From the NCBI GenBank assembly GCA_046290465.1, contig JBKAGP010000001.1, positions 4,992,001 to 5,056,000 of the forward strand: DNA of 64,000 bases. The letters are read 5' to 3'. The position numbers were made by a program. Shown piece after piece: positions 36,001-39,000 of the stretch. Origin of the DNA: Planctomycetota bacterium. GTDB lineage: Bacteria > Planctomycetota > UBA1135 > UBA2386. Position 1 is the first letter of the stretch, and every line of letters begins with the position of its first letter.

Positions 36001-39000
36001 CGGGCCCGGCTTGTGCACCTGGTGGTCGATGACGTAGCGGACCTCGTGCGCGTCGACGCCGAACCGCTCCTTCAGCAGCGCGGTCAGGTGCGGCGAGATC
36101 GTCACGTGGTGCATGCCCGGCAGGCGGTAGGTCGCCTCGATGCGGTCGCGCACGCCCTGGTTCTCGGGGTTGTCCCCCTCGTAGCCCTGGCACAGGTGCA
36201 CCGGCGCGCCCTTGCCCGGGCCGGCGCTGGCGACCCACGGCACCGTGCTCCAGAACGTGCCGATCAGCACGTCGCCGTCCGGCAGGTTCTCGGGACGGAA
36301 GTCCGGCACCTGGCAGAACCCGCAGTCCAGCTGCATCCAGGCCGGTGGCCCCGAGCGACTGACGATGGTGACCTGGTGACCGCGCTGGCTGAGCCAGTTG
36401 GCGTCCTCCAGGGCGACCTTTACGCCACCCCAGAGCTGGTCCGCGACTTCGAGCAGAAACGTGATGCGCATGTGTTCGCCTCGGCCGCCGTCTGCGGCCA
36501 TCGATCCGATGTCTCCATCGGCCCGATGCCACGGGCGACCTGAGCCGTCTCGCTTCGGATGGTTTCCGGACGCCCCGCTCGGCATGATCTCCGGCCGCCA
36601 GTGAACCCTCTCATCCGCATCATCCCGGCTTTCATGGTGCGCTTCTTCGCGAAGCCCTATGTCGCCGGCGACTCCCTCGAAAAGGCGATGGGCGTCGTCG
36701 ACCAGCTGCGCTCGGAGCGCGGCCTGCTGTCGACGCTGGACCTGCTCGCCGAGGACATCCACGAGCCCGAGCAGGCGCAGCGCAACCTGCAGGCCTACCT
36801 GGACATGGTCGATGCGGCGGCGCGCGTGGCACCCGCCGACCGGCCGACGCTGTCGCTGAAGCCGTCGTCGTACACGACCAGCCCGCTGCACGAGGGCGGC
36901 GACGCCGCCGGCTCGCGCGCGGCCATGTGGCAGATCGTGCAGAAGGCGATCGAGCACGACGTCGACGTCTCGATCGACATGGAGGGCCGCCACTGGACCG
37001 ACTTCACGCTGGAGGCGCTGCAGCGCTTCCACGCGGACGGTGCGCGCAACGTCGGCTGCGTGCTGCAGACGCGTCTGCACCGCACCGAGAAGGACCTGGA
37101 CGCGCTGCCCGAGGGCATGCGCGTGCGCCTGGTGATCGGCATCTACCAGGAGCCCGCCGAGGTCGCGCTGACCGACAAGGTCGCGATGAAGGACCGGATG
37201 CTGGCGTTCGCCGAGAAGCTGCTCGAACGCGGCCACTACGTCGAGTTCGCCTCGCACGACGTGCAGTGCGTGCGCCGCTTCCTCGAGGACGTCGTGCCGC
37301 GCGTCGGCGCCGCGCAGGATCGCTACGAGGTGCAGATGCTCTACGGCGTGCCGCGCGACCGCTTCCTCGCCGACCTGCAGCGGCAGGGGGTCAAATGCCG
37401 GCTCTACGTGCCGTTCGCGCTGGGCTGGGACCTGGCGATCGAGTACCTGCGCCGCCGGCTCGACGAGTACCCGGCGATGATGTGGCTGGTCACCAAGAAC
37501 ATGTTCCTGCGGCGATGAGCGGCGTCAGCTGCTCGTAGCTGCCCATGGCAGCGCGGGTTCGGGTGATTGCGAGATGGTTGCCGGGGCCCGGGGCCGGGCC
37601 GGTTTCGACGGGGAAGATCCGCCACCCTGGCGGAGCCTTGCCTTCGCCGGTATAGTGTTTCCCCCCATGGATCCACTTGCCACGATTGTCGAGCGACTCT
37701 GCGCCTGGAAGGATGTCAACAAGGAGAAGCGCGACGGGAAGGACTGTTTCCTCGTCCGCGGCCAGGTCTTTGCCTACCTCGGCAAGAAGGGCGTGGTCGT
37801 CAAGCTCGCGCCGCCGCAGGTGACCGAAGCGCTCAAGATCATTGGCGCCAAGCGGATGCCGGACGACGGCGACCCGCACTCCCGCGAGTTCGTCGAGATC
37901 CCGGTCACCGGCCCGCGTGAGGTCGAGCGCGCCATGATGTGGCTGCGCCGCGCCTGCCGCCTCGGCCGCACGGCCGCCGGCCCGGTCTAGGGGCTGGCCC
38001 GTCTGGTAGCTTGCCGATGGATTGGCCGGCTGGTCGAGTCGCCGGCTGATGTGGGGAGCTGCCTGGGCGCGTGCTCCCGTCGGACGCCGCCGGATCCGTC
38101 GGCTGGCTCCGGAAGTCGTTGCCAATCGGTTCGCTAGGTCAACCGGTTCGCGGCGCGCCCCAACGCGCAGCCGAGGTGCTCAGTCCGCCCGCTGCCAGGG
38201 GATGTCGGCGACGCCGGCCTGCTGGTTGGCCAGGCGAGCCCAGCTGAAGCACAGGTCCGACAGCCGGTTGAGGTAGACGCCGATCTGCGTCGGGACCGGG
38301 TGGCTGTCGGCGACGCAGCGCTGCAGGGTCCAATAGCAGCGCTCGGCGCGCCGCGAGACCGTGCGCGCGAGGTGCAGCACCGCGCCGATCCTCGAGCCGC
38401 CCGGCAGCACGAACGTCTTGAGCTGCGGCAACTTCGACTCCGAGGCGTCGATCCACTGCTCCAACTCGCCGATCGCCTTCTCGACCCGCGGCACCGAGGC
38501 GTTGCCGCCCTCGGTCGCCAAGTCCGCGCCGATCTCGAACAGCGCGTCCTGCAGGCTCTGCACCTGCGCATCGGTCGGCGTCTGGCCGTCCTGCAGCTCC
38601 GCACGCAGCATGCCGAGCACGGAGTTCAACTCGTCGACGGTGCCGTAGGCCTCGATGCGGGCGTCGTCCTTGGGGACCCGTCGGTTGCCGAAGAGTCCGG
38701 TGTGGCCGTCGTCGCCGGTTCCGGTGTAGATGGGCATGCGCGCCGTTCCTGGGTCACTCGTAGGGATAGAAAAACCGGTCGGCGGGGCGTGAACCCCGCC
38801 GACCGGAAACTCTGTTCAACACTTCGATGGGGGCCCGTCAGGGCGGATGGAGAGGTTTCCCATCTGGAGCCGTTGGCTCACACGATCCTGGCGAGAGGAC
38901 CGGTAGCCGCCCAGGTCTCGACTCCAATGCAGACAGAGAACTGTACGATCTGGCACTCGGTGCCACCGGGGCCGTGGACGAGTATTTTGTGGCGAGTCGG

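Follow-up and report, generated by a model that had tools for sequence, protein, structure and literature searches.

The cobalamin riboswitch (RF00174, Cbl-I/II), the RpfB switch of mycobacteria, the C-rich-loop small RNAs and 6S RNA are the described systems that lie closest to the element presented here. The cobalamin riboswitch is defined by a four-way junction P3-P6 and a kissing loop (PMC7367189). For mycobacteria, a B12 switch of narrow range has been proposed, with a three-way junction, a non-canonical box and an intrinsic terminator (10.1101/2024.07.19.603033). Among RNAs that act without Hfq, sX13 of Xanthomonas and the UCCC-loop RNAs repress G-rich targets (PMC3771888).

The window analysed in this work is a stretch of 64,000 nucleotides from a Planctomycetota bacterium, and all plain coordinates refer to it. 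Two contig sets also contain parts of the stretch as DNA. The element shares with 6S RNA (RF00013) its single copy, a similar length, a closing stem and a terminator of its own, while the long rod and central bubble of 6S are absent here and a separate 6S-like RNA is found in the source genome. It resembles the cobalamin riboswitch in its place above a corrinoid adenosyltransferase gene, in the terminator that follows and in a loose B12-box-like word; it differs in having a three-way instead of a four-way junction, and its box-like word lies at the 5' end and is half paired. With the RpfB switch, compared by description only, the element has in common the narrow range, the three-way junction, the non-canonical box and the intrinsic terminator (10.1101/2024.07.19.603033). 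The conserved bases of RpfB sit in an A-rich junction, whereas the junction here is variable and the conserved bases occupy a distal internal loop. The likeness to the C-rich-loop RNAs (sX13, S. aureus RNAIII and the UCCC-loop RNAs, as cited in PMC3771888) lies in the independent transcription unit, the stable stems, the pyrimidine-rich loops that complement G-rich translation starts and a genome in which no Hfq was found. Those RNAs are rows of simple hairpins and gave no sequence match in this analysis; the present element closes into a three-way junction, and its most conserved bases form a purine-rich internal loop. Full-text searches of the literature, which did not extend to supplementary motif tables, turned up no description of this RNA and no regulatory RNA of this kind for Planctomycetota.

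Locus and architecture of the element

The element lies on the minus strand within the intergenic interval 38738-39128. On one side stands the gene of a 185-aa PduO-type corrinoid adenosyltransferase (38180..38737, minus strand; PF01923 Cob_adeno_trans, E 1.5e-54), as the survey's finding had placed it, and on the other a divergent gene for a 522-aa Kelch-repeat protein (39129..40697, plus strand), which adjoins the RNA in 37/37 genomes. A scan for promoters returned a sigma-70-type signal, TTGACT-17-AATACT (39009-38981, minus strand; -35 hexamer at 39004..39009, -10 hexamer at 38981..38986), one found against 0.1 in shuffles, from which transcription would start near 38975. A TTG...T promoter of the same kind is present in 29 of 37 homologues, at a median of 31 nt above the core. 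The predicted transcript opens with a 5' hairpin, P0 (38952..38973, minus strand), whose sequence varies between loci. Its median energy is -9.7 kcal/mol and 20 of 34 loci reach z<-1, but in the source genome it does not stand out from shuffles (z -0.2). It closes with an intrinsic terminator (38770..38806, minus strand), a hairpin of 14 pairs (38806-38775; -32.0 kcal/mol) followed by a U run. The whole RNA would measure about 205 nt, and the 211-nt strand from promoter to terminator folds at z -2.83, a value matched by 1 of 200 shuffles. The survey's description of an RNA with its own promoter and terminator is borne out at the level of the motifs.

Between P0 and the terminator lies the conserved core (38808..38946, minus strand; 139 nt, 144.7 bits), six helices arranged as a three-way junction of P1, the P2/P3 arm and the P4/P5 arm. 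The closing helices P1a and P1b (5' strands 38938-38934 and 38932-38928, partners 38814-38810 and 38821-38817, minus strand) pair in 95% and 87% of cells over 37 copies, with double changes in one P1a pair and five P1b pairs. P2 (5' strand 38919..38925, minus strand, with 38872-38866; seven pairs) contributes two of the three column pairs with the strongest covariation. It leads into the internal-loop strand J2/3, AGACCUGGGC (38909..38918, minus strand; 10 nt), the most conserved part of the element, whose CUGGGC columns are identical in 36-37 of 37 copies and altered only in the divergent copy of genome G088. The hairpin arm P3 (38875..38908, minus strand) ends in a pyrimidine-rich loop, CUCGCC (38895-38890), of which U, C and G are kept in 35, 36 and 34 of 37 copies. 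The arm P4 (38826..38864, minus strand; 38864-38860 with 38830-38826) encloses the single-stranded motif CCUCUCC (38855-38849) and the hairpin P5 (38844-38833). CUCUCC is present in 32 of 37 copies, and GCYY in the same L4 loop in all 37.

Covariation supports the fold

The branched RNA of six helices (P1a, P1b, P2, P3, P4 and P5) that the survey had proposed is recovered. A 39-pair structure was written on a MAFFT alignment of 18 cores, unfitted to any structure; 83.8% of its cells pair and 20 of the 39 pairs show double-sided changes. Its covariation score is reached by 0 of 500 shuffles, controls that ignore the kinship of the sequences, and controls with slid partners give 33-46%. The model-aligned set of 37 copies yields 91.8% of cells paired and double-sided changes in 27 of 39 pairs, on an alignment that was fitted and leans towards the model. 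Two further alignments, A3 and A4, were left out because they contained antisense matches. RNAalifold independently recovered P2, P4, P5 and part of P3 while missing P1. Six of the best nine covarying column pairs are model pairs and the remaining three cluster in the L4 loop; no pseudoknot appears among the covarying column pairs of the 37 copies.

The copies have a median pairwise identity of 68%, and the bases of the junction are variable across them. In the source genome the covariation model is 1.0 kcal/mol less stable than the lowest-energy fold (median gap 3.4, range 0-34, over 37 copies), and more than 70% of the model pairs are present in the lowest-energy fold for 19 of the 37. Core lengths are spread over all three reading frames (10/13/14).

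Distribution and losses

The survey's range of five in 18 family genomes proved too low. Of 91 family genomes, model R1 finds the RNA in 37, which belong to 11 of 41 genera; model R3 returns the same 37 genomes and two weak extras, which were discarded after inspection. One copy per genome, as the survey stated, is what we see throughout: each of the 37 genomes has one match, and in the source genome the match of 144.7 bits is followed by the next at 21.7. Outside the family, none of 108 genomes sampled from the order carries the element. The class sample (124 genomes) gave one weak match and the phylum sample (151 genomes) one weak match besides the source genome, both rejected on inspection. 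These model searches score 21-36 candidates per genome and missed the divergent G088 copy, which was found by reading the locus directly and which folds unaided into the same topology; 37 further pduO or Kelch regions were read in genomes without a match. A 41-genome search covered 23 pduO loci of the family, 18 with the full element, one with a part of it at a contig end and four without, and seven pduO loci of other families, all without it.

Exact pattern searches agree. Among species genomes, 11 of 14 matches are true copies, nine of them in Planctomycetota, while the three matches in other phyla score at most 16.5 bits and were rejected. Nineteen of 58 metagenome matches are true copies, 17 above pduO, one in the gene order of genome G071 (described below) and one cut at a contig end. 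The only viral match had no model match. Also set aside were a weak match in G358 (34.4 bits), which is a short repeated palindrome, matches of 22-26 bits with poor core motifs in G204 and G046 and as second matches in G009 and G002, and the weak model matches at L145 and L129.

We placed the carriers on a FastTree tree of pduO and Kelch fragments from 66 genomes, leaving out genomes without both genes on hand. All 38 carriers fall inside a single clade of 57 genomes (support 0.97), in which 10 losses are counted. Several inner nodes of this tree are weak, and the RNA appears to have been lost about ten times. Remnants are visible. In G067 (locus L160, above pduO) the promoter, the 5' hairpin, the first 13 core bases and the terminator remain and the rest is deleted, and in G005 and G007 core and terminator have decayed together. 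The RNA family is a real structured family, absent from Rfam 15, confined to one Planctomycetota clade and dispensable.

A separate observation concerns G059, where the region above pduO (L168:1650-1800) lacks the P2/P3 arm but shows a closing stem, a terminator and a CCCUCCUCUC stretch; with a model score of about 11 bits, it is possibly a truncated or remote relative.

Comparison with known RNA families

A search of Rfam at E<=10 leaves the element without a match, in line with the absence reported by the survey. Twenty homologues cut to about 230 nt gave 16 scattered weak matches, far below the gathering score, and none recurs across the core. The survey's statement that this is not a known cobalamin riboswitch also stands, with both the hallmarks and the score of RF00174 missing: a search of the source genome with that model gave two other sites at E<=1 and not the element, covariation supports a single three-way junction, and we find no kissing partner and no covarying loop-terminator pairing. 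The T-loop pattern occurs in 2 of 37 copies and the strict B12 box, expected at the 3' side, in 0 of 37; each is present in two of three true cobalamin riboswitches that served as controls. A permuted cobalamin riboswitch was rejected on the same B12-box/T-loop test. SAH, SAM/SAH and ZTP riboswitches and HDV-like ribozymes, which share short words with the element, misfit the covarying topology and have no Rfam match. 6S RNA was rejected on the missing rod and bubble and the lack of an RF00013 match over the core; SRP, RNase P and tmRNA were each found elsewhere in the source genome.

The source genome has a probable 6S RNA at G000:C1:83211-83420 (L001:1501-1710), a full-length RF00013 match of 27.9 bits, below the cut-off, with the 3' hairpin typical of 6S; sub-threshold RF00013 matches occur in four of five relatives. 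It also has two canonical cobalamin riboswitches (L032, G000:C1:2442356-2442487, and L033, G000:C1:775531-775707), one of which precedes a secreted-looking protein of 344 aa.

Terminator, gene order and the start of pduO

The terminator starts 0-5 nt after the core and has a median energy of -28.4 kcal/mol over 37 loci. Barring it costs a median of 14.7 kcal/mol (0 to 22.9), a cost near zero only in G002, G005 and G007. The alternative partner of its 5' arm varies between loci, and equilibrium folding of the 37 loci gave no conserved shared antiterminator. For pairing with core segments, the own terminator has no advantage over that of another genome (p 0.085-0.995 for 14 combinations in 35 loci, two decayed loci having been dropped). 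J2/3 does pair with the terminator loop and 3' arm at -14.3, compared with -12.3+-0.55 for shuffled arms, and L3 with the 5' arm at -8.5, compared with -7.3+-0.4; neither duplex exceeds about half of the terminator's energy, and neither covaries. The terminator base is not a genome-wide repeat, one terminator occurring among 3623 motif sites.

The survey placed the RNA always at one locus, and indeed no copy was found at another site in the 37 family carriers; 36 of the 37 copies sit immediately upstream of pduO, in the same orientation. The exception is G071, in which an intact RNA (94.7 bits) and its terminator are followed by a convergent gene and pduO lies on another contig, next to what is presumably a typA-like gene. 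This is one lineage in a 6%-contaminated assembly, and the relocation of pduO may be recent; the metagenome locus L094 has the same gene order. The distance from core to ATG varies from 68 to 274 nt, and at L048 and L063 (G011 and G024) short tandem repeats with units of about 15-17 nt expand the spacer between terminator and pduO. Several RNA-free genomes (G096, G097, G099, G101, G102, genus g8) keep the upstream promoter, which there reads straight into pduO. Among 20 loci scanned, one in a sister-family genome (L028) has a canonical cobalamin riboswitch before pduO. Methylmalonyl-CoA mutase is present in 61/61 family genomes and canonical cobalamin riboswitches in 59/61, and across these 61 genomes the RNA shows no association with B12 enzymes or with canonical riboswitches.

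A -10-like hexamer, CAGGAA (38746..38751, minus strand), lies 8 nt before the pduO start in the source genome, with no clear -35 there; from its position across homologues it is a putative leaderless promoter of pduO. Such hexamers 6-11 nt before the start are enriched at loci with and without the RNA (0 of 500 shuffles) and also in 18 short-spacer loci (0 of 1000 shuffles). Of 39 RNA-bearing loci, 17 have a full -35/-10 pair, where shuffles give 1.65; among RNA-free loci the pair occurs in 3 of 34. The patterns and weights were chosen post hoc, and kin loci are not independent. A full pair is seen at 13 of 18 long-spacer loci and 1 of 18 short-spacer loci. The source locus is of the short type, with the -10-like hexamer only, and at such loci pduO may need read-through. 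In G078 and G079 the pduO promoter takes the form TTGCAC...TACGA, the same as the RNA's own promoter. A strict Shine-Dalgarno sequence precedes pduO in 3 of 36 cases; a looser pattern finds 11 of 39 but also catches the hexamer.

Discussion

The survey left the element as a pduO leader, with a riboswitch or an sRNA as candidates. The leader and riboswitch part of that reading is weakened by the missing conserved antiterminator, the promoter-like signal before the pduO start and the arrangement in G071, and the sRNA part is the better supported. We consider it probable that the element is a stand-alone RNA of about 205 nt acting in trans. The strong terminator, the lack of preference for the own terminator, the start signal at pduO, the variable spacing and G071 all favour this reading over action in cis. 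The RNA gene would have arisen a single time, with Kelch and pduO as its neighbours, in the common ancestor of one clade. It would be transcribed from its housekeeping-type promoter and stopped at its own terminator irrespective of the B12 level, with pduO transcribed separately as a leaderless message.

For the mechanism, our leading though tentative model is pairing of the CCUCUCC loop with G-rich ribosome-binding sites, which it complements; the likeness to sX13 and the source genome (94% complete), in which neither Hfq nor CsrA was found, point the same way. The folded core would present this loop, and perhaps the CUCGCC loop too, to mRNAs whose translation would then be blocked without Hfq, while the invariant J2/3 strand would pack on the P4/P5 arm or bind a protein. 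P2 and P4 are similar in length and might run alongside each other, which would place GGGC of J2/3 (38912-38909) near GCYY after the CU loop, a proximity that might serve as structural contact or as switch. Even distant copies retain the closing stem with its terminator and the CU-rich loop, and the loop is kept in G088 although J2/3 has changed there. CUCUCC is exposed in the covariation model and partly paired in the lowest-energy fold of the source genome. Counting against loop pairing, the most conserved bases lie in J2/3, outside the loop, and five of 37 copies lack CUCUCC yet have J2/3. The 3' end of the source genome's 16S rRNA is of the usual anti-SD type. A target screen over 3796 crude gene starts gave a best 1% no stronger than that of eight shuffled queries; the sixth-ranked target, presumably nusG, is within the shuffled range. 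A role as protein-binding scaffold or decoy follows closely behind loop pairing in likelihood.

A cis-acting riboswitch or attenuator, in which a ligand (a corrinoid first of all) or a protein at the J2/3-P4/P5 pocket alters termination ahead of pduO, strikes us as unlikely. It would fit the position of 36 of 37 copies above a B12 enzyme gene, the invariant unpaired bases with a terminator immediately behind the core, and the RNA-free genomes in which the upstream promoter reads into pduO; a loose B12-box-like word occurs in 21 of 37 copies. That word is half hidden within the covarying helix P2, and the duplexes of J2/3 and L3 with the terminator arms, better than with shuffled arms, are weaker than the terminator and without covariation. 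A separate promoter signal stands at pduO, G071 keeps the RNA away from that gene, and B12 use, with mutase and canonical riboswitches almost everywhere in the family, does not follow the RNA. Precedents exist in the canonical riboswitch before pduO in the sister-family genome and in the narrow-range switch with three-way junction and intrinsic terminator proposed for mycobacteria (10.1101/2024.07.19.603033). That the element founds a new class of RNA sensing a corrinoid or another ligand is, in our estimate, quite unlikely. The ligand would bind where invariant J2/3 meets the P4/P5 arm, GCCC (38844-38841) would leave the P5 hairpin to form a pseudoknot with GGGC of J2/3, and the outcome would be read-through into pduO or an altered exposure of CCUCUCC in trans. 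The 5' strand of P5 changes only from C to U in the aligned copies, which both pairing partners tolerate, and in G088 the two words differ yet still complement each other, a single case; the invariant J2/3 and P5 columns cannot show covariation, and the pseudoknot is accordingly a model.

Descent from a strongly diverged known family, as a second 6S RNA or a permuted riboswitch, is improbable. The single copy, the own promoter and terminator and the long closing stem with internal loops would suit it, and Rfam models are weak in this clade, giving its 6S-like RNAs 18-38 bits, below the cut-off; yet the source genome has its 6S-like RNA, SRP, RNase P and tmRNA at other sites, the 20 homologues share no recurring family match over the core, the closing stem of about 10 pairs comes without a central bubble, and some ten losses are ill-suited to a housekeeping RNA. 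Linkage to the Kelch gene in every carrier, together with the G067 remnant that keeps promoter, 5' hairpin, 13 core bases and terminator, would speak for a cis element of that gene or a structured insulator with an inert product. We hold this decidedly improbable, as the RNA lies on the opposite strand above the Kelch promoter, and the compensatory changes and invariant loops, seen at a median identity of 68%, are not what an insulator would retain. Scarcely credible is an artefact, whether of shared ancestry in GC-rich DNA or of a short protein gene: the covariation model does coincide largely with the lowest-energy fold in 19 of 37 copies and the shuffles ignore kinship, but double changes in 20 of 39 pairs arise on the unfitted alignment, core lengths occupy all three frames, and promoter and terminator are conserved.

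The RNA forms a well-defined family whose fold can be tested, and the source genome is one in which Hfq and CsrA were not found. The sister genomes with and without it (G011/G014, G055/G051, G094/G093 and G070/G106), after about ten losses, are natural contrasts for finding its partners. Should a corrinoid turn out to be its ligand, the RNA would represent a new class of riboswitch. For a clade-limited, dispensable small RNA of organisms represented by metagenome assemblies, the reach is moderate.

Other features of the neighbourhood

Convergent with pduO, a gene for a 107-aa protein (37667-37990, plus strand) is 86-100% identical across the family loci in which it was observed, compared with 54-84% for pduO. 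The protein has no Pfam match, and its nearest Atlas clusters are TfoX_N/YjbR-like (score 0.90), which we regard as a lead only. A palindromic repeat at gene ends (33283-33330, and L001 3093-3210) gives weak matches to the model and is likely a REP-like element. Directly after the Kelch gene, 40715-41446 (plus strand) encodes a fusion of HTH_3 and shikimate kinase.
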